A stretch of DNA of 64,000 nucleotides, from IMG/VR virus record IMGVR_UViG_3300026176_000228, positions 32,001 to 96,000 of that record, one strand, 5' to 3'. How positions within the stretch are numbered: position 1 is the stretch's first letter; every line of letters begins with the position of its first letter. This document shows positions 30,756-55,095 of the stretch, piece by piece. The notes under the pieces were generated by a model. That model saw nothing but the letters and a program-made list of their open reading frames with translations, made no database searches and had not been told where the DNA came from. This DNA comes from a virus (Duplodnaviria; Caudoviricetes). The position numbers were made by a program, and so were the translations under genes.

Positions 30756-31917
30756 AGGGGTTGCACGGAGCGTGGTCAACGTTGGATGCAAGGTAGGGGC
30801 CAGGCTGCATGGGTCATGGTCTTATGACGTTGCATGGTAAGGTATAGTTTACATGCGCTATTGGCAACGTCGCCCTACAAGGTGGGCTGTATCTTGCACA
30901 TGTCAATGGCGCATGAATACACAAGTGGGGTGCACTTGAACATCTGTGCTATGATTCTTAAAACGATTCAACCTTAACAAGAAAATTGAATGCGTTTCGC
31001 ATAGACCAACATGCTATGTTACGCGTAACACGGCATTGTAAGCTCATATCTACCACAAGTCTTGTGATTGCACCATATTGCACTAGATAAAACGTTTTCC
31101 TTCGTGATAGCAGTCATCCAGGATTGACACAAAGAACGTGCGTTCTACAATGTCATATGTACTTGCATCCTGGTATAGTGCAAGTCATGACGCATTGGCA
31201 ATACAAGTGGGATTTAGCCGGTTTTAGCCGCGCGTCTAGGCGTGCGTCATGTAGGATTGCAAGATGAACCTGGACTTGCAGCAACATTACGATGAACCTT
31301 AAAGTTTTGCAATCTAAAATATGTCATGGTAACAAACACATCAAACACGTTTATACTACGTGCGCACGGGCAACCCGCGCAGTTCCACCGCACCTTGACA
31401 ACGTGAGACGCGACCTAAGCACAGCGCAACGCGCCAAGGCAGCGGGTTGCGTCTCACTACATCCCCAAGTCATAAAGGACGTGCTACCACTACGCAAGGG
31501 TAATCAGAGGTTATGGCATACATTCTCCGTATGCTGGCGCAATCGCTAACGTCGATTCGCAGACGTAGGACAGATTGACGCTAACCTACCTTATCCCCAT
31601 GCAAGCATAGCACGGAAATAATGCCGTAAGGCACACTAGCACGGCTTTAGCACAGCATAGGCTAGTGGACGTTAAAGGGATAGACTTCCTTATACTAGCA
31701 CAGACGTGCAAGATTGTAGTTATACGCTGTGCATAGCTTAGGTGTAAGGAAGAGGTTGCATCACTTCCCGCGCTAGTATGCGCAAGGTTGTACAAAGTCT
31801 ATACAAACATTGTGCATATGTGGCTGGCCGTCATAGACCACGCGGGATATTTGGCATATGCCAAAAGGTTCAATCGCAACCTACAATGCGATATATAGCA
31901 CAAGAGGAGATTCTATC

Positions 31918-33093
31918 ATGGCACGCACTAGCAAATCAACACAATCGAACGTGAAGCAGATGTCTGAAGCAATCGCAGAATTCGAAAAGGAGAATCCCAT
32001 GTCAACGCAGACGGAAAAGGCGCCGCGTAAGCCGCGCGCCAAGTCCACTACTCCGAAAGCGGGTGAAGTCACTACACAGAAAATCGCAAGGGTAGACGCG
32101 AACGCAGTCGCGAACGCTGATAATGCGCCTATCGCAATGACCGGCAGTAAGGTTGATCTTTCCGGTATGGCAGACATTCCGGGCTATGTGTCAGTCGGCC
32201 CGGTCGTGAAAGGTGGAGGTGGGAAAAAGCACGCACAGTATTTGGCAGACGCGCAAAAGTTGGCGGATGAACACTTGCCAGCTATCCGCACCTTGCTTGC
32301 CTCCGGTCGGTCAAACGATATCGTCCTGTGGAATCATATCGCGACTTTGAAGCAAGGCAAGGCGAATAAAATCGCAGAGGATGAACACGGGAAGTATCCG
32401 CCATTTTCCGATTGGTTGCGCGTTGCTGTGGGTATGTCTATTGAAGATTATCGCGCGATTAGCCCGTGCCTTGACGTTGTGCAATACACAGAATTAGTGA
32501 AAGCCTACAAGGGGGAAGACGGTAACGCGATTAGCAGACGCGCCGCGGCTGATATCGCGAAGATGTGGCCCGATGTGGAGCACCGCGCAGCGACCAAAAA
32601 CGCGCCAGAACGTACCGCAGTTGACAATCTGCCAGCGCGCGAATTCGCTATTCGCGTTGCTCAAACGTTGGGTCGCTACGCGTGGGATGCGTTTTTGGTA
32701 GGCGCGAAGATCGATCCCAATAAGCAAGGTTCAAAGGGTATGGATTTTCCCGAATTGGAATCCTGGTACATGAAAAAGCATGTTGCGCTGGAAGATTGCA
32801 AAACCAAGGAACATGCGGATATGCTCAAGGATGAATTCCGGACGGAAGCCTTGCGCGAACTCATGACAGAGGATGATCCCCACGGGCCGGAGTTAGAAAA
32901 GCTTGGCAAGTTGGCAACCAGTATCGCGGCATCGATTGCAGGATTCACAGCCAAGCTTACGGAAGTGCAGGAGCAAATCGCCTATCTGGAGCAGGATAGG
33001 CGCGACAGGTTGGCGGCCAAGCTTGCAGAGGAGATGAACGCTAAAGAATCTAAGGCGCGCAAACGCCAATCACGCGCGCCTAAGTCTGCATAA
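31918..33093 (+). CDS. Hypothetical early protein (Lys/Ala-rich N-terminus, C-terminal coiled coil)
   Basis: GAGGAG RBS before ATG 31918; first gene after a palindrome. Confidence 0.75.
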   Translation: MARTSKSTQSNVKQMSEAIAEFEKENPMSTQTEKAPRKPRAKSTTPKAGEVTTQKIARVDANAVANADNAPIAMTGSKVDLSGMADIPGYVSVGPVVKGGGGKKHAQYLADAQKLADEHLPAIRTLLASGRSNDIVLWNHIATLKQGKANKIAEDEHGKYPPFSDWLRVAVGMSIEDYRAISPCLDVVQYTELVKAYKGEDGNAISRRAAADIAKMWPDVEHRAATKNAPERTAVDNLPAREFAIRVAQTLGRYAWDAFLVGAKIDPNKQGSKGMDFPELESWYMKKHVALEDCKTKEHADMLKDEFRTEALRELMTEDDPHGPELEKLGKLATSIAASIAGFTAKLTEVQEQIAYLEQDRRDRLAAKLAEEMNAKESKARKRQSRAPKSA

Positions 33094-33099
33094 CGATAG

Positions 33100-33720
33100 C
33101 ACGTTTGGAGTACCAAACCACCTAGCCTAAATCCTATTAGCTAACCATGACTAGACTAGTAGAATTTAGGCTAGGACGTTTGATAGCAAACATGCTGCTA
33201 GAATGCCCATAGATACCGTTTTAAAGCCCATAGGCGCGTTCTGTATAGGGTATAGGTATAAAATGACCTATACCCCATTTTTAGCCGTTTCTGGCGCGTT
33301 TTTGCTATCAACGCGATAGGTCATAGCACACTTGTTCGGAAATCAGCCGTTTCGTGCGTGCTATACCGCATACAGCCGTGTATGATTATGTCAATACAGT
33401 CATACATCGGGCGTTTTGGCATACATCTGATTTTTGGCATATGCTAGAATCTAATTTATCTGAGTGGTCGATAATACGCGTGTAGACTATAGTGATTATC
33501 GACGCGCTAGTCCAAAAATGGTTTGACCATTCATCCTATATGGCGCTAGTCTACAGCGTCCTTATAGGTTCAATGTCACTAGTCTGGTAAATTAGATTCT
33601 AGCATATGCCAAAAATCGGGTCATATGCCACTAGACTTGCCAAGCATCATAGACTATGCCATATGTTATAGCATTTGACACAAGTCATGATGCTTGGCAT
33701 TTTATATGGCCGGTGCATTT
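33100..33720. other. Non-coding region densely packed with inverted repeats
   Basis: Stems at 33121/33175, 33177/33313, 33248/33276, 33429/33617 (30 bp) and 33638/33699. Confidence 0.8.
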
Positions 33721-34934
33721 TTTTGACTTGCTTTATATAGTTATGTCAACGTAACTGTAACCGTAACTGTACTCGAAATTGTTTTTACATTTTTGGCATA
33801 TGCTAAATTTGAAAAAACAATTTACAACCGTAACTGTCAACTGTAAGAAAAACAATTCATAAATTACTGTGCTAACTGTGGCGCAGTAAAAAACAATTCA
33901 CATTTGGCATATGCCAAAAACGAAGGAGCGTGCAAAGATGCTTAAGCTTGCGTATGAGAACTATTGCCATCATATGTGGCAACTGTCTTATATCGGTGAA
34001 CATTGGAAGGATTTTGTCGTCGCGTGCTACGACGTGCATTACGCCATGAACGGTATTGAGCAAATGTTCTGGCAAGGTTCGGAATCCAATCTGAACCTGC
34101 GCGATACGCGACCTGTGTCTTGGGAAATGTTTGAATTCTGGACTGATGATCAAGCCGTGATTCTGGACTTTGCTATACGCGTAGCTGCGGTGCTTGAGAC
34201 GGAACTGATATTGTAGAATTTGGCATATGCCAAAAAAAACAAAGGAGTTTACCGTATGCTCACCACTAAAACCGCCAAGCAAATGCTTCTGGATCGCGGC
34301 CAAGCCTTGCCGCGTGTAGGTTATGAAAGCATTGTAACTGAATTCAAACAGCCGTGCGGTTGCTTTGATCGCGTATGGCTAGTCAACCGTGCTGGCAAAT
34401 ACTCCACGCGTGTTGACTTTCATGCTTGTGATGCTTGTTGGTTCAAGTTGCCAATTCGGTAAATTTGGCATATGCCAAATAAAACAATTTCACAACAAAG
34501 GAGTTTACCATGTTCAAGCGTTTTCTGTTCATTCTGAAGTACGATGTGTTGTCCAAGGAATCCTTCCGCGCGACCATGTTCTACTTGGCCCATGGTTATT
34601 GGCGGTAATGTGATGCTCAAGCTTCTGGTCATTGCGAAAATGCTGTGCTTCACGCTCGGCCTGACGCCCGCGGAATGGGCGTGCTATGAATCGGTTGCGG
34701 AATATCAACCACGCGAACAGTATACCCGCGCGTGTGTCTATGCTGAAGATATGGATGAAACCACGCCGAATCTGGTTATTTACGAAACCTGGAACGGTGA
34801 AATCGGTATGATGTTCTTTGCCGGTTAGTGTATAACTGCCAATGGTAAATTTGGCATATGCTAAATTCTGCCTAATCCAAAAAACAGAATTTGGCATATG
34901 CCAAAAAAACAATTCACAGAAAGGCTAAAATTCC

Positions 34935-35249
34935 ATGAAGACTATCGTGTACTTGAATCCCGACTATCAGGACGCGGAGATTCGCTATACGCATGATGTA
35001 CCACTGGAAAGCGCGAAGGCTACTGAAGTGTTGGAAGTCTCTGACCTGCCGAAACGGATTAGCGTTAAGGCTTTTCATCCCGATGATTTCATGGATTCGC
35101 ATACCGCAGTTGACTTGCCCCGCGACGCGTTCGTGAATCTCTTGCGTTACTTGCACGCTAACGACCGGCGTATCGAAGCCATTATGCTTGTCCGTAGTGT
35201 GACGCATTGGGGCCTATCGGACGCGAAGCATTTCGTGGAATCTCTCTAA
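34935..35249 (+). CDS. Protein with a ribosomal L7/L12 C-terminal-like domain
   Basis: RRIEAIMLVRSVTHWGLSDAKHFVESL resembles KIEAIKxVRxxTGLGLKEAKxxVE. Confidence 0.65.
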   Translation: MKTIVYLNPDYQDAEIRYTHDVPLESAKATEVLEVSDLPKRISVKAFHPDDFMDSHTAVDLPRDAFVNLLRYLHANDRRIEAIMLVRSVTHWGLSDAKHFVESL

Positions 35250-36099
35250 CCCACCGGCATATGCCAGGTCAATAAAATGATTTTGGCATATGCCAAATTA
35301 CTATTTCCAGAAAAGGAGTATTTTCAATGCCTAGGCTCAATGTCAACCTCTCTGTTTCCGGTCGCGCTACCCCTAATTCATGGGATGCACCTCACGCGTA
35401 TGGTGATACGGTTGCGTTTGATGTGGAAGCTGAAATTGATTTTCTGCGCCTGTCCAAACCGCAGATTGTCAAGATGCTGGAAAAGCATGTCGAGCAAGCT
35501 ATCGTGAATTGGGAACGCGCGCAAGCTGAGGAACTGCGCAAACTGGCTGAAGCTGTGGCTGAAACTGATTCTGAATCATAAACTCAAGTTGAACTGGTTT
35601 GCCTGTTTCCTGCCATAAAACAGGTATTGTAAATTTGGCATATGCTAAAAAAGGAGTCTGTCATGTACAAGCTTCTTACTCTGCTCGGCTTTCGTGTATG
35701 GGCATACACGAATGCCTGCATTATGTTGCAAAACGGACGCTTGCGGGTGAATGTCTATCCCAATCGTGTTTCTATCTATCGGTCTACGCTATGACCATAC
35801 AAGTCGCGGTCAAACCTAAAGATGGCGATTTTGTGTATGGGCCATTTGAAGTGGCGACATTCCAGCGCGTGGGTGAGATTCTAGTTAAGATCGCGATTCA
35901 AAACCATGATCCTGAAATCTCTCGCCACGACCTATGGCTAATAGAAAATGGTAAACTGACTGAACGGGCCTTCTATTTCCTACCCGATTATGTCAGTATC
36001 AGGAAAAAGAAAACGCGTACGCGTAAAGCCTATACACAGATATGGGCTTTCGATGCAAAACTGACAAGGTATATCCGACAGAAGTCGGAGTAACAAACC

Positions 36100-36166
36100 A
36101 GGCGCGTCGTCTAAGTAAGACAGAATCGCAAGATTCAAATTCAGGTATCAAATCCTGGCGCGCCTA
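36100..36166 (+). ncRNA. Degenerate tRNA-like element 1
   Basis: Acceptor AGGCGCG/CGCGCCT; D arm GTCT/AGAC; GAATC-GCAA-GATTC arm; T-like arm CAGG-TATCAAAT-CCTG. Confidence 0.55.
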
Positions 36167-36168
36167 TT

Positions 36169-36243
36169 CCCGCTGGCTGGAAGCCCGTGTCATCGGCTGT
36201 ACTAGATACTGATAATTGCCAGTTCGATTCTGGCGCGGCGGGC
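36169..36243 (+). ncRNA. Degenerate tRNA-like element 2
   Basis: Acceptor CCCGCTG/CGGCGGG; canonical T arm GCCAG-TTCGATT-CTGGC; irregular D and anticodon arms. Confidence 0.5.
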
Positions 36244-36583
36244 ATTTGGTAAATTTGGCATATGCCAAAATCTAACCCTCAAAGGAGTCTATTCCATGAA
36301 ACCGTGTATCATGTACATCATCTTTCCTGAAAACCCCCGGCAAACACCTTATTTACGTGAGTTCAAAATCGCGGGCAATCCCAATACCCATACGCGTAAC
36401 TATGAGCGCGCGCGTACTAAAAAGGCTGCGTTTCATAAGGCGCGTATCATGGCGCGCCAGATTCGTGGTGTAGTCGAAATCCAACGGTCTGTACCCGGCA
36501 AGAAATTGGCTAAGACTTGGCTGGTTTGGCAAATCTGAAAATTTGGCATATGCCAAAATCTGAAAACTGAAAGGAATCTAGTC

Positions 36584-36967
36584 ATGGCTACTTTGAATCT
36601 CGCTCGGCTTTTCGCGGACGCGCACGCGGCAGGCATGACCGCGGCTATGGAGCACGCGCCAACGCCTATGTTGGTCGTAGAACACACGAATCCCCTGAAC
36701 GATAACAGTCCTATCAAACGCGTCTATGCGCCGGTGATGGATGGCGTCTGCGGCTTCGCGTGGATTGTGATTAAGCCTGCCAACTGTGCCGCGGCTAAAT
36801 ACGCGAAGGAACACTTTGGCGCGCGTAAAGGTTACGAACCGGGTATCCATATTTGGGTACATCAATTCAATCAAAGTTATGAACGCAAAATGAAATACGC
36901 TGCCGCGTTTACAGAAGTGTTGCGCGGCGCGGGTATCAACGCTTATGCTGATGGGCGTTTGGATTGA
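36584..36967 (+). CDS. Hypothetical phage protein
   Basis: DGVCGFAW...QSYERKMKYAAAF...GINAYADGRLD, a motif pattern I recall from phage hypotheticals. Confidence 0.7.
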   Translation: MATLNLARLFADAHAAGMTAAMEHAPTPMLVVEHTNPLNDNSPIKRVYAPVMDGVCGFAWIVIKPANCAAAKYAKEHFGARKGYEPGIHIWVHQFNQSYERKMKYAAAFTEVLRGAGINAYADGRLD

Positions 36968-37683
36968 TGTTTTAGCATATGCCAAATCTAAAAGGAGTTC
37001 AAGATGCCTACTGAAGTGCCTAAATCACCGTGGTTCGACCAAGAGTCACCTGCTATCGCGATTCTGGAATTGATTGCTGAATGTGATGACTCAGAGCCTT
37101 ACGAACTGAATGCGGGGGCGGTATTTCGCGCGGTCAATGGCAAATTCTTGGTCGTATTTGTTTCGGGTTGTTCCTGTTGGCCCGACCGTGGCAGCACAAC
37201 CCAAACTGTCTGCCATACACCAGTAGAAGTAGACCGCGCGTTAACTGGTTGGCACACGCTCAGGGACTATTGGCAAAACTGGCTCAGAAAGGATAACTTG
37301 AAAGTGAAGACTATCTATGAAACCGCCGATGGGCAACAGTTTACCGATTATTCTGCCGCCGAAGAACATGAGCGCACGTTGCGATTGGTGGACTGGCTTG
37401 ACAGTCAATTGGGTAAAACTGGCATGTATAGCACCCGTGAATTCGCAGCCTTGTTCACGAATGAAACCGCGCGTGCGGAGTTTATGCGCTTGTTGAGCTA
37501 AAATCATTTTTAGCATATGCCAAATCTACAGTTCCGCGCGGCTCTCCACCGCGGCGCTAAATACTCAGTCCCTACTCAAGAATCGTCAATCGAAGAAAGC
37601 ACACTGAGTCAAATCAGTCTCGTACTGCGCGCGTAAGAGTACCGGGATTGTAAATTTGGCATATGCTAAACTGGAGCAAAAAC

Positions 37684-38118
37684 ATGATTACGTCATTCCA
37701 GGGTGAACATAGATTTCTGTCAAATTTCAGTCCTTGCAATGTTGAATTTGAAGGTATGGTTTTCCCGACCGTCGAACACGCGTATCAGGCGGCTAAAACG
37801 CTTGACCTAAGCTTGCGGCAACAGATTGCTGCTTTGCCTACTCCTGGTAAAGCCAAGCGTTTTGGGCGTCAACTGGAATTGCGTCCTGATTGGGACAGAT
37901 TACGCGTGTCTATCATGTTGCAATTGCTCATAAGTAAATTCACGCACGAACCGTGGCGTGGTTTACTTATCGCCACGCGTGACGAAGAATTAATCGAAGG
38001 TAATACTTGGGGCGATAGATTCTGGGGCGCGGAATTAGTCAACGGTGTTTGGGTTGGTGAAAATAAGCTTGGTCGCTCATTGATGTTGGTGCGTGAAACG
38101 TTGCTTGAGGCTAAATAG
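37684..38118 (+). CDS. NADAR (YbiA-like) family protein
   Basis: FLSNF, FPTVEHAYQAAK, AKRFGR, LRPDW, LIEGNTWGDRFWG and GENKLGRSLM. Confidence 0.92.
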   Translation: MITSFQGEHRFLSNFSPCNVEFEGMVFPTVEHAYQAAKTLDLSLRQQIAALPTPGKAKRFGRQLELRPDWDRLRVSIMLQLLISKFTHEPWRGLLIATRDEELIEGNTWGDRFWGAELVNGVWVGENKLGRSLMLVRETLLEAK

Positions 38119-38145
38119 ATTTGGCATATGCTAAATTCCAACCGT

Positions 38146-38184
38146 GAGACGGGCGACTACTCAATAGTCGCCCGTCTCTTTTTG
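38146..38184 (+). terminator. Rho-independent terminator
   Basis: GAGACGGGCGACTA/TAGTCGCCCGTCTC followed by TTTTT. Confidence 0.85.
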
Positions 38185-38222
38185 CGTTCAAAAATAAATC
38201 AATTTTAGAAAGGAATCAAACC

Positions 38223-38477: not shown

Positions 38478-41400
38478 TTTTGGCATATGCCAAATCCTAA
38501 ATCCTGAAAGGAGTAAACCAATGAAAGTCTACTCCCTAGCGCAAGACTATCAGCATCTCTCCAAGTTTCGTTGTCCTGACCCTCTGATGTGGCGTTCACA
38601 TCGTCTACGGCGCAGACGTTGGGGTTGTCGGGCCAAGGAACTTCTGCATCGTAACTTACGACGCGAAAAACGTCGCGAGATTAGGAGTCTGTATCATGGT
38701 GGAACATGCGAACCTGAGGTATCTCCAACGGGCGTTGCATTTTCCCGGTGTAGCCATCAGTGACATTATTGCTGCCGAACAACGCGCGGAAGCCAAGAAG
38801 TATAAGAACGTCGCGTTTGTCTTAGGGCAAAACGGGCAAGAATTGTTTTTGTCCATCGTGCGCAGTCAGCAGACGCAAACTTGCATGACTACCAATCGGC
38901 AGGGTCTCTCGCCTAAACGGTTACGCGTAGATAAGGTGATTTACGCGTGTTAATTTGGCATATGCCAAATCAGAAAGGAATAACTTTTCTGATAGAAAGG
39001 TGTGATTAGCATGTTAGTAGATTATGAATTTGTCTTTCCCCTAGAACCGCAGCACGTCGAAGCTGAACGTCCTACTGACCGACTCTGGGATGGCATTGAT
39101 TTTGAAATGAGTTGTCCTGCACGCCTAGAGCAAGGTGTCTATTTCGTGCCGGAAGGTATTGATAACTGGTTACGTAATGAATTTGATGAAGATTGGCAAC
39201 ATTATCCCGCAGATTTGCCCACGCCTTTGTACTGCTATGGTGTATGCGACAGCGCGACACAATTTCGCGTATGCTGGTTGCCACTTCTACTCCAATCTAA
39301 TCGCAAGTTTCTAGTTGTCTTGGGCCATTTACACAAGATTGACGAACCCGTACAGGGTGGCTGGCGTTGGCATAAGTGGGGGCCATACATTGGCACTAAG
39401 CAACCGCGTCATGAATATCTTTATGACGAAGGGCCGGAAATCACGCGTGTTTGCCTGTTTCAGATTTATGAGTATTTGAACGTGTAGTTTTTAGCATATG
39501 CCAAAAAGGAGAATGAAAAATGCTCAAGGTTGAATACTGTCCCGAAGGCTGGGCTGTGAGTGACTGGGAAGGCGCGGATTTTCTCTTGCGCGTACGCAAT
39601 GCAACTGACAATTTCGATACCATTCAAGTCTCCACTTCTCTGCCTATCTATCTCCTGCAACGCGAAGTTGTACGCGGTAATCTCGCGCCCGAAGCCGTAG
39701 AAATCATCTATAACGGTCAAGCCTACCATATCAATGAGTATGGCGCGATTCCTGACTGGCCTACGGGACTGGCTGATATTTCATGTCATATCGCGCAGGA
39801 TATCTTGGAACACGCGATGGCAAAGCGCAAGGTACAGCGAGCCAAGCGCGGTTTTTAGCATATGCCAAAAAGGAGTCGCTACCATGCTAGATAAACTGTA
39901 TCTAGAAATCACCTTAGGCTACGGTAAGTATCATTTCAACTATCATTTTCGCTGTTTCGGTAGTTGGTGTTGGCTACCCCAAAACAGAGTCAAGATAGAA
40001 CCAGAATTCTGGGGTACAGATGCGTGGTGCTGGAAATGGGGTTATTTCTTTTTGTCTAAATACTAAAAGGAGTCACGATATGGAAGCAGGTAGTCGCGAA
40101 GCCATCAAATATGAACTCCAACACGGCACTATCTGGACGGTCATTGACGAACTGTTACACGCGCTCGACCACGTATGGGCGCGCCTACCTATTCTGGATA
40201 GTTTGCTCTATCGCTATTGTCAGTGGGCGCATCGCGCTGAAATCGAAGCTATTCAACGCGAACCTGAAGATTGATTTTTGGCATATGCCAAATCTGGAAG
40301 GAGAACTCCAATGCGTTTCTATGTCATCTATTCATTCGACATACCGTATGAAGATTCAGTCAAGCCCTGGACACCGCGTCGCGTGTTCAAGCTGCAAACT
40401 ACAGAACGGCACGATGGCGCAGATGGTGACTATGACTATTTGGGCGATAACTGGACTAAGAGCAAACATCGCAAGTATGTCGGCTTTCTGAGCAAAGCAC
40501 AACTGCGGCAACTGTGTTGGGATATGGGTTTTCGGCCCGAAGAAACTGAAACCATGGGTAGTCTGACTGAATACGGTTGGTTGCCCGCGATTAGCTTCAA
40601 TGCGGAGACTGAATACTATGATGTTATCGGAAATATGTACGTGACGCCTATTCCTCAAAAACCTAACGGGGATGACTTTGAGGAAATGGATGAGCGCGAT
40701 TGGGAACGCGTACGCGCCGCGGTTATTAGTTATTTTAGCTAATTTGGCATATGCCAAAAAGGAGCCAGGCAATGATTCGCGTTATTCTGACATCGCGACC
40801 AGATTATAAGAAGCTGGCGGCTGATATTCTCTCGGTAGAAACCGTTTCATTTGACACGAATAATCTTGAGTTACTAGAAGAATTGGCAACCCAAGCCGAA
40901 GAAGCGGGTATTCCAATTGAATTCATGCTCAATGAAACCATGTTCACCGCGCGTGAAGTCCTGATTGCGCTAAGGGATGATATTGAAATCAGGCCGCGCG
41001 GATAATTTGGCATATGCCAAATCAAAGAAAGGAACCTAAGTCATGAAGCACAAGCACTGGGGCATAACTATAGACGATACTGAACCCACCACGGGTGTCT
41101 ACAATGGCAATGATGTAAGTGGTTTTGTCTACGATAATCAAATTGACCCTAACGCACAGCGCTTCTGTCCCTATTGCGGCAATGCAACTGTTATCACCTG
41201 CCCAAGCTGCGATAACTCCATTTGCTATACCTGCGTCAAAGAAATTGACTGGTCAATGGTAGATGGTGAGACAACTGAATGGCTACTGGGCAGTTGGGTA
41301 GAGGAAAATGGTGAGTGGGCAGTCGATAAGACTGGTGGTGACTTCGCGGCCCTGTATGACTCCAATATGAATGTGATTCAGGTAGTTTGGTCTAACAGTA

Positions 41401-44601: not shown

Positions 44602-44647
44602 GATTTGGCATATGCCAAAATCAGAAAAGAAGAAAGGACTAAAACTA

Positions 44648-44890
44648 ATGGCTAACCATACTTGCAACTACTTTGACAGACAATATAAATTCGCCGTTGA
44701 TGACCCCCTGCGCGAACTTGTGCCGGATATGAAAGATTGTCCATTCTGTGGTGAACACAATAAGTATGCTTTAGTGGTCTACATCAGTGACCACTATGCG
44801 CTTTATTGTGCTAAGTGCGACTGCGAGGGGCCATACTCTAATAGTGTTGAGGAAGCTTTTGAGTTGTGGAATCACAGGAGTTCACTATGA
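44648..44890 (+). CDS. Lar-like restriction alleviation protein
   Basis: CPFCG...CAKCDCEGP...EEAFELWNHR. Confidence 0.65.
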   Translation: MANHTCNYFDRQYKFAVDDPLRELVPDMKDCPFCGEHNKYALVVYISDHYALYCAKCDCEGPYSNSVEEAFELWNHRSSL

Positions 44891-45221
44891 ATAACCGTAT
44901 CTTCCACTCCGCTGAATTCCAAGCCAGTACACGCGTTTATCCAGAAAGGCTAATACAATGTCTACTCTCAAATCTGAAGTTCTCAAACGCCGTGCTTCAC
45001 TAGCAGCTAAGGCGCGTTTTGAACATTTTGAAGATGGGCGCGTCAAGATGTATGTCACAATTCCTGATTGGTCTGCGGTAGATGACGACGCGACCAGTGC
45101 GCCTTTGCGTGAGATTTTGAATTATGATTTCGATTGTCAGGCACATTACGAAGATTGGCTCAACGCGATTGATATTCCAGATTGAAATTTGGCATATGCT
45201 AAATAAGAAAGGACTTCTAAA

Positions 45222-46220
45222 ATGAGTCAACACAGTGTCAATGTTGTACGTTTGGGTAATATTGCACCACATCCCAATGCTGATACTCTGGACACAACCA
45301 CGGTCAATGGTTTCACCTGCGTGATTCGGCGCGGTGATTTTCAACCAGGCGACCTTGCACTTTACATCGAACCGGATTACGTTGTACCGCTGGATAATCC
45401 ACTGTTTACCTTCCTACGACCTGAAAATCATCCTGAACGCATCGTGCAACGCATTGGTGTCAAGCGTCTGCGCGGTATCTATTCCATGGGCCTGCTGCTA
45501 CCTGCACCCGCGGGCGCGCAAGAGGGTGATGATTTGATGGAAGCTCTGGGTATCACGCGCTATGAGCCACCTGAACAAACTGATGCCAACACTGGCGGGG
45601 CAACCGAAGCCCCGCCTTATCGTCAGGTGATTCCAACTTATGACTTGGAAAACTTGCGCAAATGGCAGGCTAAAGTTGAAGGCCATCAAGTTATTATCAC
45701 CGAAAAAGTCCACGGCACAAACGCCCGCTATGTCTGGTCAAGCGCATATGAGCGCATGTTCTGTGGCTCACGGCGTGAATGGAAGAAGGAAGACGCGACT
45801 AATCTATGGTGGCGCGCGCTGGCGCAGAATCCGTGGATCGCAGAATGGTGCCAAAAGCATCCTGATGTAATTCTGTGGGGTGAAGTTTATGGTTGGGTAC
45901 AAGATTTGCGTTATGGGGCCAAGCCGGGTGAATTTTTCTTCCGCGTGTTTGATATCTATACCGTAGATAGTGCGACTTTCTGGTTGCCCGGCATGGCGCA
46001 GAGTATCTTTGGCGCACGCGCCATGCCAATTGTGTATCAGGGTATCTACCCTGGTTTCGCGGCAGTTGAACAAATGGCGGATGCTGATAGCGCATTGGCA
46101 AAGCATATCCGCGAAGGCGTAGTTATCGAAGTAACTGATATGCCAAATGAATGGGATACTGATTTGCAAGCTTGGCGCATTAAGTTGAAGTTGCCCGGTA
46201 ATAAATATCTCAGTCGTTGA
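45222..46220 (+). CDS. RNA ligase (Rnl2/DRB0094-like) with N-terminal OB fold
   Basis: PHPNADTL, LRGIYSMGLL, motif I TEKVHGTN, GEVYG, FRVFDI and REGVVI. Confidence 0.9.
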   Translation: MSQHSVNVVRLGNIAPHPNADTLDTTTVNGFTCVIRRGDFQPGDLALYIEPDYVVPLDNPLFTFLRPENHPERIVQRIGVKRLRGIYSMGLLLPAPAGAQEGDDLMEALGITRYEPPEQTDANTGGATEAPPYRQVIPTYDLENLRKWQAKVEGHQVIITEKVHGTNARYVWSSAYERMFCGSRREWKKEDATNLWWRALAQNPWIAEWCQKHPDVILWGEVYGWVQDLRYGAKPGEFFFRVFDIYTVDSATFWLPGMAQSIFGARAMPIVYQGIYPGFAAVEQMADADSALAKHIREGVVIEVTDMPNEWDTDLQAWRIKLKLPGNKYLSR

Positions 46221-46297
46221 AATTTGGCATATGCCAAAATGACTCACTACCCTGGTCTAAAAAGCTAGGGTAGTTTTGTTTTTAGAAGGGTTCTATC

Positions 46298-46426: not shown

Positions 46427-49400
46427 ATTTGGCATATGCTAAAAGTTAGGAGTCCTAAAATGCATTACACATTAAGCGAAATCAGACGCGGCATCGCAGT
46501 CCTGCGCGCGACCGTACCGTCTGATGATTATCTACTGAACTTTTTTATCAATTTTCTGCAAGCTAATGAAGATACTATGTATGACTGGCTCAACGCAGAC
46601 ACAGAAGAGGATGATTGGCAAGGAGATTTTGCGTGAATAATCCCACTTGGTCTAATCAAGACATTGACTTGGGTTTACCTTTTGAAATCCGCGACCACTT
46701 TCTAAAAAATGACCTAGTAGACAACGACATTTCCACGCATGATTGGTGTCCTCTTTGTGGCACTTACTGGTACGCGCACGCGGATGACTCCTGTGCAACT
46801 GAACGCTTACCCTACGCGTTGTTCAATGTCGGATTGGTCTATGTCCCGATTACTATTACTGGTAAACCCCATGAAATCCTAGTCTGGTATATCCGCTATC
46901 AAATCTACTCGCGTTACGGTACTATCATTGGCGATTATCAGATGGACGGTGAATGTGAGGGTTTGACTAAGGGAGATGTGCTGTACCACGTGACTGATGT
47001 ACTGGATGGCTTGAACGCGGAACTGTTGGAGATGCGCATCGCGGGTGATACCTCTATCTTTTGGGATAGTACTTTGGAGTATGACAGTAAGTGGTAATTT
47101 GGCATATGCCAAAAATCTGAAAGGAATACACTCTAAATGAACAGTACCTATTGTTTCATTGTTAATGGTAATGAAGTTGTAGAGGGCGATAACATCGAAA
47201 CTTATGGCTCTCTCCCTCAGTTACGCGCGGGTAAATACGATAAATGGTATCTGGCACCTGATGAAGATTATGCCACAAGCAAAGAAAAGGACTACTGGCA
47301 GGATATGGCCTGGCGTGACTCTGAAGAATTCGTCATGCTACTCGGTGGCGCAGAGGCAGTCATGGGCTACTGGCTGCGCGGTGAAACCGTTGAAGATGTG
47401 ATTGACCAAATCATGTCTGAGCGTTGCGAATGGGGTGATGTGCATTATGTAGATAGCATGTCGGTTTATATTATGAAACAGCATCCTAATCTAAGTTGGG
47501 AAGATGTTTATATAGACGATAGTGACGAGCCAATTGAGGATGATGTGGTATGTCCCGATGATGCAGATGACGATATGATTGAACACATGGAAGATACTAA
47601 CACAGCCCGCGCTCTCGCGCGTGGTTGGTGGGAACTGTGTCGGGACTTGGGTTATGAACCCGAAGTCGCGTATCGCGCGAATTAATTAATTAATACTTAA
47701 TTAAGGAGTGAGTTATGGATAACTTTACTAAGGTTATTCGCCCTGGCACAACCACCACTTGGAATGGTCGTCGCATGAGTGTCTTTTGCACTATCGAATA
47801 TCAAGACGGTAGGTTATCTATTACCGGTGTCGAAGGGCCATTGTCTAGCGGTAATTGTCTAGGTAGCTGTGGGCAGATTGAAACGAGTATGGATTTGACA
47901 TACCTAGCCTGCTTTCACTTTGCGCCACATTGGAACAGGGATATGTTGAATGAATTTCTGTCTATCTGGCGCAGATGGCATCTAAATGATATGCGCGCGG
48001 GTACACCAGAACAAATGGCCTGCCTGGAAACGCATATCTATCAGCACTCTTATGGCGACCATTATCTGTGGGCGAAAAACATTTTGGCATATGCTAAATT
48101 AGACCCGGTAACGCTACCTGATGGGACAGAGTATTACTATGGCACGCGCTGGTTGTTTGAGCCTGTGCCAGAAGATGTACTGGCATTTCTGGTAAACCTG
48201 CCGGATGCGGATAAGAACTTGCCTGCGACTTGGAGGGATTGATGAAAAGCTACGCCAAGACTTTCTATGATGTGGAAATCGAAACCTACAGTGAATGGGG
48301 TGACACAGCCGAATACCCTAGTATTGATGTGCGCTGCCCTAATCTACGCGATTATTACAATGAAATTGATATCGCGTTGTTCTTAGAGACGCGCGTATCA
48401 GAGATTGATGCCGTTGCTGATGCAGTTTTCGACTATGAAGTAGCTCGTTTTTGGGAACACGCTCAAGTCATAGCTTGGGACATCTTTGGCCCTAATGTAG
48501 AAGTGCTTGCGCGCGGTCGCTCAGGCAGACATCTTTGTATCAGTGGTCTGCCTGAAATCTTTTTGTGGAAGAAACGGCAAACCGCGAAATGGCAGAAGTT
48601 TGTCAAGATAATTGAAAATATCATTAATAGTTATACTGAATTAGAGGAAGCCGCACAGTTGGTCGCGGCTTATCTGGAGACTAAAGCACTGGAGAAAGTG
48701 AAGGTCTAACATGCCTACTACCTACAAGGAACTTGCCGCATATCTCGGCAATAAGTCCGAACGACCCTACGGCAACAATACGCGTATCAGGCGCGACGAC
48801 GATGCTATTGTCATTCGTTTGCACGCCACGGATATCTTGACCTGGACTCCTGAAAGCGTCACGCTCAATAACGGCGGCTGGTATTCTAACACCACTAAGG
48901 CGCGCATGCAGGACTCCTTGCCTCCTAGCTGGCGACTGTATCAAGAGTCAGGAAGTTGGTCACTATTGAATCATGCTAACGGTGAGACATACGCGTATAT
49001 CAATGGCATGACCATCAATCTTGGCTCAGAAGTGGATACCGTGGATTATCATGGCGCAGAACCACCCATGACAAAAGAAACGGTCAAAAAGTTGACCAAG
49101 CAAATCAACGCGTACGCGCAGGGTTACGCGGAAGCTCTCGCGCGCGGTGAAGTACCCGCACCTGACGAGGGTGACTGTCTCGCGTGTGCCTTTCATTGGG
49201 AGGGCACTGACCATCTATTGTCGCACATGGAAGAGAACTACTATGTGCCTGGTCTACTGAATAACGCGTGGAACTTCTATGATAATCAGGGCTTGTCTGA
49301 TTGGCAAGCTGATATTCTCACACGCGATGTCTCTAAGCTTCTGCGCAAGTATCTGCGCCAGCAATTGGGCTTGGCTTGAATTTGGCATATGCCAAATTAG

Positions 49401-49970
49401 CAAAAGGAGTTCTATGGCTGATATCTACTACTTCCTAATCGGTATTGCGCGCCAGGGCGCGCAAGTCCTGGTTTTAGATGACCAAGAATTAGCTTTTGAT
49501 TTACTCGCCGCGGGTCGCGTTGGGCGACTCGCTTTCATCTGGAGTTATCATGCGCAAACTACTCATTGTCTGGTGGACTATCTGGCTCGTTTTCTTTTCC
49601 GCCATGCCCGTTGGGGTGGTGGACGCGGCCCCTATCTTGGAGCCAAATAACAGTCCGGTTATCGGCGGTGGAGGCGTTGACTCAAAAGGTCAAATGTGGG
49701 TCAACGTAACGGCACCCAATGGTGGACCCCTCAAGGGCACGCAAATGGCTAACTTGCTCGCGTATTTTCGCGGCAAGGGTTTTCAACCGACTAGTTGGCG
49801 ACCGACCTATGACCAATCTAGAGGCATTTGGGTTATGGTCTTTGTGACTATCAAGGCGACGGGTGTGCCGCAGATTGTTTGTAAATGGGATGCCGCGAGT
49901 AACTGTCTGCGGCGAGTTGATAATTGGAAACCTTGTTCTAAGCAGACTATTTGTATAGAGCGCGGTTAAT

Positions 49971-50016
49971 TAGTAGACCAGGGTTAATTAACTTAATTAA
50001 CCCTGGTCTACTTTTT
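49971..50016 (+). terminator. Long-stem terminator merging into a palindrome copy
   Basis: AGTAGACCAGGGTTAATTAA/TTAATTAACCCTGGTCTACT followed by TTTT. Confidence 0.75.
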
Positions 50017-50061
50017 GGCATATGCCAAATTTTGAAATTGTTTTTAGAAAGGAAGTGACAC

Positions 50062-51723
50062 ATGGCAAACAAAGTCATCTGTCCTGAATGCGGTCGCGAC
50101 ATGCGACTTATCGGTGGCAAGAATGGCGATTTCTACGGCTGCACGGGTTATCCCGATAAGTGTCGCAAGACGCTCTCGCGCGATATGGCTCGCGCGTATA
50201 CACAGATTGACCCACAAGAACTCGAAAGCATGAAAACCAGTTTTCGACCTTCGCATTATCAACAAGCTCTCTTTGATGCGATTGAAGGCATTGATCAACG
50301 TCCTAAGCGTCATATTGTGATTGACGCTAAAGCAGGCAGTGGCAAAACGACTTCCATCGTGCAGGGTGTCTTGCGTATTCCCAATCGCGCACAGCAAAAA
50401 GTTGCCTTTGTCGCGTTCAATAATAACGTCGTAGATACCTTGCGCGACCGCTTGCCACCAGATTGCGATATTTCCACAACCCACAGTGCCGCCTTCAAGG
50501 ATGTACAGCGCCATCTTGGTTTTGTGCCTAAAATTGACAGATATAAAGTCAATGCTATTGCAGAGCGTTTTCTGCCTAAGCACCTAACCAATGTGGCTGC
50601 GGAGCTAGTGGATAAAGTTAAGAATACTCTCGCGCCAACCGACGAATTAACCCTGGAAGCTGTCTGCGACAAATACGACTTGGACATTACTAAAGAGATG
50701 TCTGAGGATGCCAGTGAAGCCGAAATTGCTGAAGCCAAGGCGCGTGTTTACGCGGCTGTACCGCGAATTTTAGAAATCAACGCCGCAGAAACTTCTACGG
50801 TGGATTTCACGGATATGCTTTGGTTGCCAGTTTACAATAACTGGCCGATTCGTAAATTAGACTGGCTCTTGGCTGACGAAGTGCAAGATTGGAATCGTGG
50901 TCAAATCGAGTGGGGCTTGCGCGCGGGTAGTAGTGGTCATCTGGTAGCCGTGGGCGATCCAGACCAGTCCATCTACGGCTGGCGTGGCGCAGACACCAGC
51001 GCGATGGATAATCTAACGCGCAGTCTGGATGCTGATGTTTTACCATTGTCAATTTGTTATCGTTGCCCGACGTCACATATCGAACTGGCACAGCAAATTG
51101 TACCTGAAATCGAAGCTGCGCCTAACGCTAAGCCAGGTGTTCTAGGCTGGATGGGAATGCATGAATTGACTTACCATCCCCAACATCCCGTACCGGGTGA
51201 CTTGATTCTCTGTCGTGTCAATGCGCCATTGATCAAGTATGCATACGCGTTTCTACGTGAGAATCTACCAGTTACAATTCGAGGCCGCGATATCGGAGAG
51301 GGTCTACTGGCTCTTATCAAAAAACTCAAGGCTGATTCGCTAGACGAACTAGCATTCAAGGCGCGCGCGTATTACGAAAAAGAATATGCTAAATTAATGA
51401 AAAATGATAAAGAAGGTCGCGCTAATGCCTTGACTGACCGCATTGATACTCTACTGGCTTTGATTGAAGGCGTTGATAGTCTGCATCAACTGATTTATCG
51501 GATTGATACTCTGTTTCCGCGACAAAAGGATTCTCAGAGTATCGTCTTATCTACGGTACATCGCGCGAAAGGTGACGAAGCACGTCGCGTGTTTATCCTG
51601 CGTCCTGATTTGATTCCCCATCCGCGCGCGCATACCGAAGATCAGATTCGCGGCGAAAAATGTGTCAAATATGTCGCACTCACCAGGGCTAAAGAAGAAC
51701 TCTGGTTTGTAGAAAGGTCGTAA
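50062..51723 (+). CDS. UvrD/Rep-like SF1 helicase with N-terminal topoisomerase-type Zn finger
   Basis: AKAGSGKT, DEVQD, VGDPDQSIYGWRGA, YRCP, STVHRAKG and YVALTRAK; FYGCTGYPDKC. Confidence 0.93.
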   Translation: MANKVICPECGRDMRLIGGKNGDFYGCTGYPDKCRKTLSRDMARAYTQIDPQELESMKTSFRPSHYQQALFDAIEGIDQRPKRHIVIDAKAGSGKTTSIVQGVLRIPNRAQQKVAFVAFNNNVVDTLRDRLPPDCDISTTHSAAFKDVQRHLGFVPKIDRYKVNAIAERFLPKHLTNVAAELVDKVKNTLAPTDELTLEAVCDKYDLDITKEMSEDASEAEIAEAKARVYAAVPRILEINAAETSTVDFTDMLWLPVYNNWPIRKLDWLLADEVQDWNRGQIEWGLRAGSSGHLVAVGDPDQSIYGWRGADTSAMDNLTRSLDADVLPLSICYRCPTSHIELAQQIVPEIEAAPNAKPGVLGWMGMHELTYHPQHPVPGDLILCRVNAPLIKYAYAFLRENLPVTIRGRDIGEGLLALIKKLKADSLDELAFKARAYYEKEYAKLMKNDKEGRANALTDRIDTLLALIEGVDSLHQLIYRIDTLFPRQKDSQSIVLSTVHRAKGDEARRVFILRPDLIPHPRAHTEDQIRGEKCVKYVALTRAKEELWFVERS

Positions 51724-51990
51724 AAACGTAAGGAAGGTGATTTATGACTATTATCTTTAACGAAGATCATGTCAAGCACGCACTCGAACTACTGACCCAC
51801 ATGGGTGGTGGTATCACATTCTGTGATTTTCCTACCAAGCACAGGGATTATCAGGTCAGTTTTGAGGATACTGATACAGATCAAGAACTGGTTATCTGTG
51901 CTAAGTGCTTGGAATGGCAATTGAAACAAGTGGTAATTGGAGAAAGTTGATCGAAGCTATTTAGTATATGCCAAATTAGAAAGGACAACT

Positions 51991-52371: not shown

Positions 52372-52399
52372 TAATTGTTTTTTTAGAAAGGATTAACCA

Positions 52400-53221
52400 A
52401 TGGGTACTGTAATTTTGGACGACTTACCAGATACTTATGATTTCGATGTAGTCGAGCCGGTGGTACAACCGCCGACCATTTCCGACCTGCTCCTGCAAGA
52501 AGCCGCTCAAGCTGAGGATTGGCTGTTCCGCGGTGAGATTCTAACTCTTTACAAGTGGTATGACATTTTCAATACTGTGATGTTCACGGACGCACCGCTA
52601 CCTCTACCCGTGATTGGTTTTGCGGGGATGAATAAGAAAACCCTCGCACGTTATAACATCGCGCGTAATGAGATTGGGTTGCGGAATTACATTTCGTTCA
52701 ATGAAAAACACTTTAATACCGCGGTGGGCGCGTGGGCTTACGGTCTGTGGAGCCAACTCGAATCTCTGCTCCACGAAATGGTCCACGCGTGGCAGCAGAC
52801 CTATGGCATAGATAAACTGGATGTGGCTAAGATTACGGCCCGTTATACTCACAATCCAGAGTTCATCGCCAAGTGTGAATTCTTCGGCTTGCATCCGCGC
52901 CCGCGCGTCGGCTCGCATATGCGTGTTGCGGATGGTTGGTTTGCGGACCTGATGGCTGAGTATGGCATCCCTGCGCCAGAGGGTGTCCCGACTGAAGTTG
53001 TGGGTAAGCAGAACTGGTGGCAGATGGAAAAGTCCTGGAAAACTTCTAATCGCGCGCACAAGTGGCAGTGTCCTTGCGGGCAAATCGTACGCGTAACTAA
53101 GGCTGATTTTCCAGGCTGTATTTGTATATCTTGTGGCGAGGCTTTTGTAGATATGACCGCGCTGGAGAGCGCAGAAAGCAGTTATGATGAACCAACCGAA
53201 GACACTCCTGACGGGAGTTAA
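52400..53221 (+). CDS. SprT-like metalloprotease
   Basis: LLHEMVHAWQ, THNPEF and C-terminal CPCG...CISC. Confidence 0.8.
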   Translation: MGTVILDDLPDTYDFDVVEPVVQPPTISDLLLQEAAQAEDWLFRGEILTLYKWYDIFNTVMFTDAPLPLPVIGFAGMNKKTLARYNIARNEIGLRNYISFNEKHFNTAVGAWAYGLWSQLESLLHEMVHAWQQTYGIDKLDVAKITARYTHNPEFIAKCEFFGLHPRPRVGSHMRVADGWFADLMAEYGIPAPEGVPTEVVGKQNWWQMEKSWKTSNRAHKWQCPCGQIVRVTKADFPGCICISCGEAFVDMTALESAESSYDEPTEDTPDGS

Positions 53222-53873
53222 GTTTGAGACGCGTACTGAAGAACGCGTTGAGCGTGTCGTGGGTTTACGTTATCCTTATGGTGACGCGATTATGCGCGCG
53301 CGGATGACTGTCTATTTGCCACTCCTTCGTGGTAGAGTAGAAATTTGGGAGAATCACGAATGGCGTTTGATTTCAGATAATTTCAATGGCAGTGGAAACA
53401 ATGTCGAAGAAGTTTTCAACCAAATGCTCAAGGTCGCGACGGGCTTTTGTGGCTAGATAAACTTTCTCTATTATAAGATTTGACTCTATATAGAAAAAGT
53501 TTACAGGGAGAGATTATGACATATGGTTTAGTCTTTACTTTTCATACTGAATATCTCGCGATTACCTATCGCACCGCGACGGAAGCTGAGACTATTCGCG
53601 TGTCCTATGATGGCACAGGGATTGATGCCTCGACTGGCGCGAGTCTTTTCTGGAGCCTGAGCTTGTTATCACCGACGCTAACTGATGTAGTGCGCGATTA
53701 TGATAACTGGCAAGTCAGGCTTTTTCCCTTGGAGCTATGATGTTAGTGGATTTTGTGATTAGTTGTATTGTGATATTGGTTATCATAGGGGCCGTACTGG
53801 GTTTGTTGAACGCTGTTCTGTCGATTCTGCTGGATATCTTAGATATCTTCAATCCTAAACTGTGAGGTTGCAC

Positions 53874-54119
53874 ATGGATGCTGCAAAACGCCGTGAAATC
53901 TCATCTCTAGGTGGTCAAGCCGTAGTCGAAAAATACGGTAAAGCTTATATGGCCGAACTAGGCCGCAGAGGTTTAGAAGGCTTAGCTGAGAAGTATTTTC
54001 AGGGCAATCGAGAAGCCGCGCTGGAATGGTTAGGTCAATGTGGCGCATACGCGTATGACACACAATTTCGGGAACGCGGCTGGGGCGTGATGCCCCAACC
54101 GCCTAAATTGAAAGGTTAG
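53874..54119 (+). CDS. KGG-repeat-like small protein
   Basis: RREISSLGGQAV...YMAELGRRG. Confidence 0.5.
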   Translation: MDAAKRREISSLGGQAVVEKYGKAYMAELGRRGLEGLAEKYFQGNREAALEWLGQCGAYAYDTQFRERGWGVMPQPPKLKG

Positions 54120-55095
54120 GAAAATGTTTCATAACGAATCAGCCAAACGAGCCAATAGTATCGGTGAGCAGTTGAAGAATATTATTGACGGGATTAATGC
54201 AGGTAATAAGTTAGACGAATCTCTGGTTGCACTAACACTAATGATTACGCGCTTGGCGTTGAGTATAATGGCAGAAGAACTGGAATCCGCGACTCACTGC
54301 CCTGCTTGTCATGCAGAACTCCATCGCGCGTGTTCTAACTGTGATACTTGGGACTTCAATCGTGAGTGATAGACTGGCGGATACTATTGCCCGCTTGAAG
54401 GCTGAGGGTCTACCCCGCGCGGTGGACTTCAAGCCCTCTTCGCCACAGCTGACTGAATTTCGCGAAGTCTTACATGGACAGATTACCAATCTGCCCTTTG
54501 GCAGTCTGGTAACGCGACAAACGTTGCGCGCGCTATCTATGGTCAGTGCAGGTGTCTTGCGCGAACTGCTACAGTGGGCAGTTAGTGAGGACTGGAGCGC
54601 CAAGCCACAACACAAGACGATTGTCAGGGAGAAGCTGTGGCGCGCGTATATGAAAGGACTGTATCGCTGATGAATCCTAATGCCTATATCTGGCGCGACG
54701 CTCACGACCGCAGTATATTGCATATTGCCGATAGTAATATATCGGTCTGGTTCAGTTTACCCGAAGAAGGTATCTGGTCACTCTTTGGTCAAGAGCTTTA
54801 TAAACGCGCGCGCGAGGCTGTCACGACTGAACCCATGCCAGTTTATCTACAGTTGGTCTTGACGCAATAATTGTTTTTGGCATATGCCAAATCAAGAAAG
54901 GTAAATCAAATAACATGATTACACATTGTGATTGTCACAACGCTTTTCAGGACGCGCGTTACGGTACAGGTATGCGCGTGCATAATTGGGCACCCAAAGC
55001 TCTAGGTGGCGCGGGTGGCTACCGCTGTACGGTCTGCCAGAAAATCAAAGCTGGCCCTAAGCCAGCTACTGAAGTTACCAAAGCGAAGAAATAGT

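Follow-up and report, generated by a model that had tools for sequence, protein, structure and literature searches.

Introduction

The elements that come closest to the one described here are, by analogy, the promoter-early stem-loops (PeSLs) of the T4-type phages RB49 and phi1 (Arbiol et al., 2010, PMC2839356; PMC4122927) and the 17-bp dyad repeat TGTTCGGNNNCCGAACA of Cluster O mycobacteriophages (Cresawn et al., 2015, PMC4351075). Here we analyze a 16-bp perfect palindrome, TTTRGCATATGCYAAA, which punctuates an array of small genes at 31850–54891 (+ strand) of a 64,000-nt window corresponding to bases 32001–96000 of the IMG/VR contig IMGVR_UViG_3300026176_000228 (104,755 bp; hereafter G000), derived from an uncultured wastewater phage. 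Like PeSLs, it is a short conserved intergenic element located after a stop codon and ahead of the next Shine-Dalgarno site and concentrated in a hyperplastic region rich in small ORFans, and in both cases close relatives differ by insertions, deletions, and replacements that are attributable to recombination from copy to copy. The formation of mini-circles has been demonstrated for PeSLs (PMC2839356; PMC4122927). PeSLs are, however, composite elements of ~50 nt and variable layout, combining a sigma-70 promoter with a G/C-rich terminator hairpin, whereas the element of G000 is a bare, invariant 16-bp palindrome with neither promoter boxes nor a terminator tail. Since it lacks such a tail and the array contains no sigma-70 promoter matching at least 10 of 12 consensus positions, it is not a strict PeSL.

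The Cluster O repeat is likewise an invariant, lineage-specific palindrome present in more than 30 copies in the short intergenic gaps of one long small-gene operon, where indels are explained by recombination between copies; its authors proposed that it is bound by a dimeric DNA-binding protein, and it is absent from the host (PMC4351075). The two elements differ in that they show no sequence similarity, about one third of the Cluster O sites are intragenic compared with 3 of 40 copies here, and no re-tuned palindrome of a sister lineage has been described there. Perfect palindromes of 13–16 bp dispersed in a dozen or more copies over a mobile genome are also represented by the RK2 operators, KorA OA (GTTTAGCTAAAC) and KorB OB (TTTAGC(C/G)GCTAAA), which are bound by dimeric global repressors (PMC2680271). 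Their half-site TTTAGC is the same as the variant half-site found here, but the half-site spacing differs by 3 bp, the ~12 RK2 sites are placed relative to promoters, and no ParB-type domain (ParB_N, PF02195) was found in the contig of either G000 or its nearest relative, G001.

In an earlier reading of the window (the original prediction), the palindromes were modeled either as a network of operator or roadblock sites analogous to mycobacteriophage stoperators or as the recombination joints of an integron-like cassette array. The stoperators of Cluster A mycobacteriophages (L5, D29) are multiple sites at which one phage repressor binds and blocks elongation; 13 bp long, they are asymmetric, function in one orientation only, and form part of a temperate immunity system. 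The locus shares with them the many copies of one short site in the short intergenic gaps of long operons, but the present site is fully dyad-symmetric, and neither an integrase nor an immunity repressor was seen; because stoperators are asymmetric and oriented, the palindrome is not a stoperator. Integron attC sites are imperfect palindromes of 57–141 bp with R and L boxes and extrahelical bases. Co-directional, apparently promoterless units behind common promoters, a palindromic element after each open reading frame (ORF), and unit-wise gain and loss are common to both systems, while the site described here is 16 bp long and perfect, is flanked only by W (A or T), has no accompanying integrase, and gives no polarity owing to its symmetry. 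Since no recombinase was found in either contig, the site is unlike attC, and cassettes cannot be oriented by a symmetric site, the array is not an integron.

Phage accessory and anti-defence genes turn over fast, and the movement of whole genes without damage is only partly understood. The locus provides a clean natural example, drawn from sequence alone, of a rigid junction site, a re-tuned sister site, and population variants that switch exactly at the site. The novelty of the system lies in the bare palindrome devoid of promoter and terminator parts, in a sister lineage with a re-tuned core, and in the nucleotide-level evidence of exchange within populations. In addition, the array amounts to a list of ~50 candidate genes for host takeover and counter-defence; NADAR, Lar-like, and RNA ligase genes are among them, but most have no known family.

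Materials and methods

G000 is 69% complete according to the CheckV estimate. Its nearest relative, G001, a 117-kb IMG/VR contig (84% complete), was found via the portal protein, which is 55% identical. As both contigs are incomplete, absences of domains in them are provisional. A strain ~88% identical to the window is represented by a Logan contig from another sample (L040), whose shared blocks are 75–97% identical to the window; block ends were taken from a blastn comparison. Population contigs came from four metagenome runs, including X1, X2, and X3, covering wastewater, an anaerobic digester, and a microbial fuel cell. Logan assembly uses 31-mers. The background for the motif was set by 100 dinucleotide-preserving shuffles of the window. 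Promoters were scored as matches out of 12 to the sigma-70 consensus with a cut-off of 10/12, and RNA families were searched in the window with Rfam at the gathering threshold and with a tRNA scan.

Results and discussion

Distribution and sequence of the palindrome

The array comprises ~55 co-directional small genes, all on the + strand, in ~35 palindrome-bounded units of accessory or anti-defence content with high turnover between strains. It holds 34 exact copies of the motif and four degenerate ones (33433–33448, TTTGGCATATGCTAGA; 33598–33613, TCTAGCATATGCCAAA; 41811–41826, TTTAGAATATACCAAA, with three mismatches; 51960–51975, TTTAGTATATGCCAAA). The palindrome-punctuated gene array recognized earlier over this interval is thereby confirmed, and its census needs correction: the exact and degenerate copies add up to 38, not to the ~43 given by ~38 copies plus ~5 degenerate ones. 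The whole window contains 35 exact copies, compared with none in each of the 100 shuffles, and the scan of the entire contig that had been suggested returned 40. The first copy of the array (31850–31865, exact) lies 52 nt ahead of the gene at 31918–33093, and the last is located at 54876–54891. Other copies identified by the exact-match scan lie at 33903–33918, 34219–34234, 34464–34479, 35282–35297, 38479–38494, 38954–38969, 40277–40292, 41006–41021, 41532–41547, and 47098–47113.

The placement of the copies is rigid. The distance from the stop codon to the motif has a median of 3 nt (22 of the 34 copies fall within −5 to +7), and the motif ends at least 13 nt (median 27 nt) ahead of the next start codon, with an A-rich linker followed by an AGGAG-type site in between; the layout of stop codon, palindrome, A-rich linker, ribosome-binding site (RBS), and start codon that had been proposed is thus upheld. 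The copy at 39854–39869 overlaps a stop codon, as had also been noticed: its TTTAGC variant supplies the TAG of the gene at 39520–39858. Among the three intragenic copies of the contig, one is found in the array (48083–48098, within 47715–48242). Beyond the array, contig copies occupy the same position between stop codon and RBS on whichever strand the genes occupy; in the window, a degenerate copy at 26419–26434 precedes the RBS of the minus-strand gene 25989–26405.

The motif logo reads W-TTTRGCATATGCYAAA-W, with the extended consensus W-TTTRGCAT/ATGCYAAA-W, and the dyad symmetry spans the center (CATATG) and reaches the W at either flank. Across the 40 copies only position 4 (G to A) and its mirror position 13 (C to T) vary, and never both in one copy. 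The single-mismatch variant occurs in both orientations, in agreement with the original prediction: four array copies carry A at position 4 (A4; 36971–36986, 37509–37524, 39490–39505, and the copy at 39854) and eight carry T at position 13 (T13; 33792–33807, 34850–34865, 35634–35649, 37655–37670, 38120–38135, 45188–45203, 46428–46443, and the intragenic copy at 48083). When copies beyond the array are included, the coding-strand totals are ~10 A-type and 8 T-type. A scan of IMG/VR for the exact motif returned 11 other contigs, each with one copy and none with more, and scans of genome and metagenome collections gave, among the matches listed, only single-copy chance matches, with no host and no further carrier.

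Exchange of whole units at the palindromes

Whole units are gained, lost, and replaced at the palindromes between strains. The motif is present in 20 copies in L040, and 16 of ~27 informative block ends between this contig and the window lie, in both genomes, at most 15 nt from a copy, compared with ~2 expected at random. At ~9 junctions one 20-nt flank of the motif is near-identical and the opposite one unrelated; at copy 35634, for example, where homology to L040 ends, there are 2 mismatches in the 20 nt upstream and 16 in the 20 nt downstream. The motif itself differs at only 6 of 288 positions (2%) over 18 orthologous junctions, far below its surroundings. In L040, the NADAR unit to the right of copy 37655 is swapped for another gene, an additional 1.6-kb unit found only in that strain is present at copy 46223–46238, and the unit 44604–45187 (opened by copy 44604–44619 and encoding the Lar-like protein and a 75-aa protein) occurs only in the window.

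The metagenome runs show the same behavior. The joint 42099>42367, present in three runs, corresponds to the loss of the unit 42106–42367 (copies 42106–42121 and 42368–42383) in X1, X2, and X3, and this unit is also deleted in L040; the joint 36246>36540, between copies 36254–36269 and 36542–36557, occurs in two runs, and each of these deletions leaves one copy. Further joints start and stop at copies, namely 36246>49377 (copy 49381–49396) and 34907>35311 in X3 (copy 34890–34905). The NADAR unit is deleted in X1, the joint 37645>38146 leaves one hybrid copy, and in X3 the gene body 40314–40740 beside copy 40743–40758 is replaced. A back-joint in run contigs, 36963>36249, is ambiguous and could represent either a circle junction or a reordering. 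Because the identity shared by any two junctions of the window never exceeds 25 bases, chimeras of a 31-mer assembly at the motif are unlikely. Under the integron-like model, breakpoints of gain and loss should coincide with the palindromes, and this is borne out in L040 and in four metagenome runs.

Such precision raises the question of a dedicated integron-like system, in which an unseen recombinase would cut and join at the palindrome and units would be excised as circles and re-inserted. The unit-precise deletions that leave one copy (42099>42367 and 36246>36540), the back-joint, and the resemblance of the 6-bp arms and 4-bp ATAT center to recombinase core sites would fit such a system, and the incompleteness of both contigs leaves room for the enzyme. 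We nevertheless regard it as very improbable. Neither a tyrosine recombinase (PF00589; the control was positive in 14 of 14 genomes) nor a serine recombinase or resolvase was found in the 105 kb of G000 or the 117 kb of G001, which confirms the earlier remark that the window shows no recombinase and extends it to the whole contig. Y1 transposase (PF01797) is missing from G000 and is present in G001 only as an IS605-type TnpA beside its own TnpB. Moreover, all units share one orientation, which a symmetric site does not impose, breakpoints also occur at junctions free of the motif, and nothing resembles the structure of attC. With no integrase, resolvase, or serving Y1 enzyme in either contig and a perfect 16-bp palindrome that is not of the attC type, the integron mechanism itself, as opposed to its breakpoint prediction, is not supported. 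The repetitive extragenic palindromic (REP)/RAYT type of element was also considered and rejected on the distribution of the REP-associated Y1 transposase.

A sister lineage with a re-tuned core

The G001 contig contains no copy of TTTRGCATATGCYAAA and carries 18 exact copies of TTGGAT(A/T)ATCCAA (also written NTTGGAT(A/T)ATCCAAA), 17 of them in a syntenic + strand small-gene array, mostly 11–30 nt before start codons and in some cases overlapping the 3' end of the upstream ORF. The two motifs have the outer arms TTTGG...CCAAA in common and differ in the core bases. Only one gene, at 36584–36967 (+), is shared by the two arrays; its 127-aa product is 33% identical between them and belongs to a widespread phage family. 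Judging from the two contigs, it is the element that is conserved in the lineage, and neither its sequence nor the genes between its copies. Retention of the element with a re-tuned core points to a reader that is encoded by the phage, not by the host, and co-evolves with its site. Further G001-type contigs are near-identical and show no breakpoints, and no repeated palindrome was found in the more distant portal relatives G002–G005.

These data bear on whether the palindrome needs a reader at all. It could be a pure recombination linker without any regulatory role, that is, a self-propagating junction repeat maintained by gene conversion and hitch-hiking. Exchange at the copies is the only property shown directly, no candidate reader is linked to the palindrome, and a seemingly co-inherited multi-gene unit (52400–54870) has no internal copies, all of which would suit a linker. 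A neutral repeat, on the other hand, need not be a perfect palindrome, need not hold its outer arms while the core changes in a sister lineage, and need not restrict its variation to mirror-symmetric R/Y positions, and 16–25 bp is a short stretch of identity for homologous exchange to be efficient. We therefore consider the pure linker improbable.

Recognition as double-stranded DNA or as RNA

Taken together, the features of the palindrome are in our view best, though tentatively, explained if it is a lineage-specific double-stranded DNA (dsDNA) docking site of a dimeric phage protein, which doubles as a homology patch for the exchange of units. We infer that a phage-encoded dimer would dock on the palindromes and control the whole array together, for example by silencing, timing, or roadblocking transcription started at the consensus host-type promoters at 27706 and 31124. 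The exchange of units, in contrast, is shown: because the same 16–25 bp recur at nearly every unit boundary, they also serve as a homology patch, through which units are deleted, inserted, replaced, or reordered with the genes left unbroken, by ordinary recombination among co-infecting relatives or among the copies of one genome. The mirror variation at R4 and Y13 and the symmetry that spans the center and extends to the W flanks support a dsDNA dimer, since an RNA hairpin would not require such symmetry.

The strongest competitor is an RNA element, a hairpin of 6–7 bp with an AUAU loop lying between the cistrons of a long early RNA and acting as a stabilizer, processing site, or translational operator. 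The RNase III sites of T7 and the RegA protein of T4 are analogues of such elements. The array resembles one long transcription unit with promoters at its head only, the copies keep tightly to stop codons (0–7 nt) and start codons (13–33 nt), and those of G001 hold 11–30 nt before starts even when they overlap the upstream ORF. The consensus hairpin has a predicted energy of −7.1 kcal/mol, and T13, which keeps a G-U pair, −4.8 kcal/mol. The A4 variant, however, abolishes the hairpin (−0.5 kcal/mol), yet it accounts for 10 of the 18 coding-strand variant copies, including 6 of 8 intergenic copies beyond the array. Since A4 is at least as common as the variant that preserves pairing, the loop is palindromic, and no compensatory A4+T13 double variant exists, recognition by a dsDNA dimer is favored, and the argument raised against an RNA hairpin in the original prediction stands. 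Loop bases are palindromic in both phages, the sequence is invariant beyond what pairing demands over 40 and 18 copies, and the hairpins of G001 are weak (−3.1 to −4.3 kcal/mol). An RNA element thus seems possible but unlikely.

Two units without an ORF also bear on the role of RNA. The first (33427–33618, +) is closed by a 34-bp inverted repeat, in which the copy at 33433 forms the core of the left arm and that at 33598, its exact reverse complement, lies in the right arm (−89 kcal/mol, z −11.9). The second (37509–37670, +; predicted fold −59.5 kcal/mol, z −4.7) is closed by a 27-bp inverted repeat, with the A4 copy at 37509 as the core of the left arm and its reverse complement, the T13 copy at 37655, on the other side, and is 93% conserved in L040. 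Both repeats are perfect and have as their cores motif copies with mirrored mismatches, and the 27–34 bp duplexes made from paired copies favor a function in RNA, as does an A-to-G change of L040 at 37509/37655 that preserves pairing as G-U. The two units may represent structured RNAs, targets of the RNase III type, or inserts similar to miniature inverted-repeat transposable elements. An earlier claim that some units hold only non-coding RNA is upheld as regards units free of ORFs (33433–33903 and 37509–37655) and is not supported as regards RNA genes, for neither the Rfam nor the tRNA scan of the window gave a match.

Several observations weigh against a docking site for a symmetric dimer. 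Most copies lie away from any recognizable promoter, which makes a classical operator role doubtful and leaves the roadblock role as an analogy, and the tight placement relative to stop and start codons fits an RNA function as well. Beyond the array, the A variant occupies 6 of 8 intergenic copies, always in the transcription-upstream half, while the mirror T occupies none of 8 (the copies concerned are located at contig positions 2841, 5449, 9826, 28309, 58419, and 101112), and in G001 A predominates as the coding-strand center base (14 of 18 array copies); neither this polarity of 6 to 0 nor the center-base bias, which an RNA element could accommodate, is predicted by a perfectly symmetric dimer. 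Breakpoints were also found at three motif-free gene junctions (40062, 46634, and 48692), and because the motif is present at most junctions, enrichment at the motif is not cleanly separable from enrichment at gene boundaries. Finally, the gene of the leading reader candidate discussed below has no adjoining palindrome in either phage.

With these reservations, the site network for a symmetric dimer that had been suggested originally would still be the best molecular reading, while its likening to stoperators holds for placement only. A more far-reaching version, in which one symmetric site would be both the dock of a global silencer of the anti-defence array and a designated crossover point at which co-infecting phages swap whole units, with inner bases re-tuned together with the reader so that control and exchange remain private to the lineage, appears improbable. 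If a specific reader exists, it and the palindrome would together represent a compact, portable means to regulate and insulate many genes together, and an example of a regulatory site that has turned into an engine of modular evolution.

Transcription of the array

Sites matching 11 of 12 sigma-70 consensus positions cluster at 27.6–31.2 kb and include a promoter at 27706–27735 (+), upstream of the array and a candidate source of its transcription, and another at 31124–31151 (+), 700 nt ahead of the first palindrome. No + strand site reaching at least 10/12 was found within 31850–54891, and the array is probably transcribed from the 27706 and 31124 promoters. Four intrinsic terminators are predicted in the array (33248, 38146, 46246, and ~49970). 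Two of them directly follow a motif copy (38146–38178 after the copy at 38120, and 46246–46274 after that at 46223), and one, a long terminator-like hairpin at ~49970–50013, directly precedes copy 50014–50029, which lies ahead of the UvrD gene. The hairpin of the motif itself is followed by A's and has no U tract, the real terminators being separate structures.

The lack of sigma-70 promoters in the array, and the four strong terminators that would call for restarts, could also mean that each copy is a promoter read by a phage polymerase or a redirected host polymerase, the units being separate delayed-early transcription units. The position of copies 13–33 nt ahead of start codons, a motif that differs by lineage in the manner of phage promoters, and the GATAAT contained in the coding-strand form of G001 agree with this. 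Terminators directly beside motif copies fit poorly with it, since those after 38120 and 46223 precede any gene; a perfect palindrome would fire in both directions, an alignment of the copies revealed no conserved element at a fixed distance downstream, the core of the G000 motif is unlike a −10 box, and domain searches of the two contigs, both incomplete, revealed neither sigma-70 region 2 nor a T7-type polymerase. A promoter function is accordingly judged decidedly improbable. Recognition of the motif by host sigma-70 was rejected because the motif has no −10 or −35 boxes and the array no + strand site of at least 10/12, and a sigma-54 reading of TGGCAT was discarded on inspection, the GG-to-GC spacing being too short.

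Beyond the array, the exact copy at 8431–8446, in the late arm, precedes an extended −10 box of the minus strand, TGATATAAT, by 16 nt; in this region (8431–8480, −) the motif takes the −35 position of a promoter ahead of a glycosyltransferase gene. At the head of the array, an 800-nt ORF-less hub (33093–33903) contains five iteron-like GTAACTGT words, four AAAAACAATTYCA boxes (also found at 34481, 34906, and 50044), and repeated CTAGTCTA/TAGACTAG words, and may be an origin or a regulatory hub.

Candidate readers

Each phage encodes exactly one HTH_3 (XRE-type) protein, and the two orthologs are 38% identical. The G000 gene (contig 96515–96778) lies immediately beyond the right end of the window, in second position after a consensus promoter, and its product is the leading candidate for the palindrome reader. 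The surrounding segment (contig 96208–96778; window 64208–64778; locus L290 158–778) consists of a perfect TTGACA-17-TATAAT promoter, an ORF of ~80 aa, and the XRE gene, and the same order of promoter, ORF, and XRE gene is found at 8400–9010 of G001. Half-site-like repeats (TTTGGGATAAAC, ATTGGCATAAAC, and CTTGGGGATAAAA) occur just upstream of the G000 promoter.

The second candidate reader is the N-terminal HTH_17 domain of the portal protein. The portal ORF (59785–61575, −) carries this MerR-like domain at ~61408–61557, and the corresponding region of G001 is 7950–8093 (−). The open frames of the helix-turn-helix (HTH)-portal fusion encode 598 aa in G000 and 539 aa in G001; conservation of such a fusion is unusual, and a free-standing 66-aa copy of the portal HTH is present at 13501–13701 of G001. 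The ribbon-helix-helix (RHH) protein named earlier as a candidate (27791–28024) was not substantiated, with no match in Pfam, PHROG, or PDB, and no RHH_1 domain was found in the searches for reader candidates.

Gene content of the array

Pfam matches were obtained for NADAR (37684–38118), a Lar-like protein (44648–44890), RNA ligase (45222–46220), and UvrD helicase (50062–51723), whereas the L7/L12 match (34935–35249) falls below the Pfam cut-off; the gene assignments made earlier are thus retained except for the L7/L12-like one, which is sub-threshold. Most array products had no family match in profile searches, and megablast of 12 kb of the array against a phage collection gave no match. The multi-gene unit at 52400–54870 is putatively co-inherited. 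Homologs of the first array gene (31918–33093) and of a 310-aa gene at 26592–27524 were found only in G001 and in a 91% strain variant, and neither the 391-aa first array protein nor the immediate-early proteins matched Pfam, PHROG, or PDB entries. Homologs of a 419-aa protein occur in unrelated phages without such arrays.

Other features of the contigs

A TnpB (IS605 OrfB) gene is present in G000 at 21081–22223 (−) without TnpA, and in G001 TnpB and the adjoining Y1 TnpA (75702–77209) occupy another genome position. The portal of the window is of the Mu type, and the large terminase (55096–57960, −) contains a LAGLIDADG intein; a second intein-bearing gene, encoding 517 aa, lies left of the window (contig 14174–15727, +), and its G001 homolog is much shorter. 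Three paralogs of an N6/N4 DNA methyltransferase, one of them truncated, are located at 61852–62643 (+) of the window and at contig positions 2869–3528 and 4428–4775. A gene encoding a GIY-YIG endonuclease (contig 1888–2817) is directly followed by a copy of the motif.

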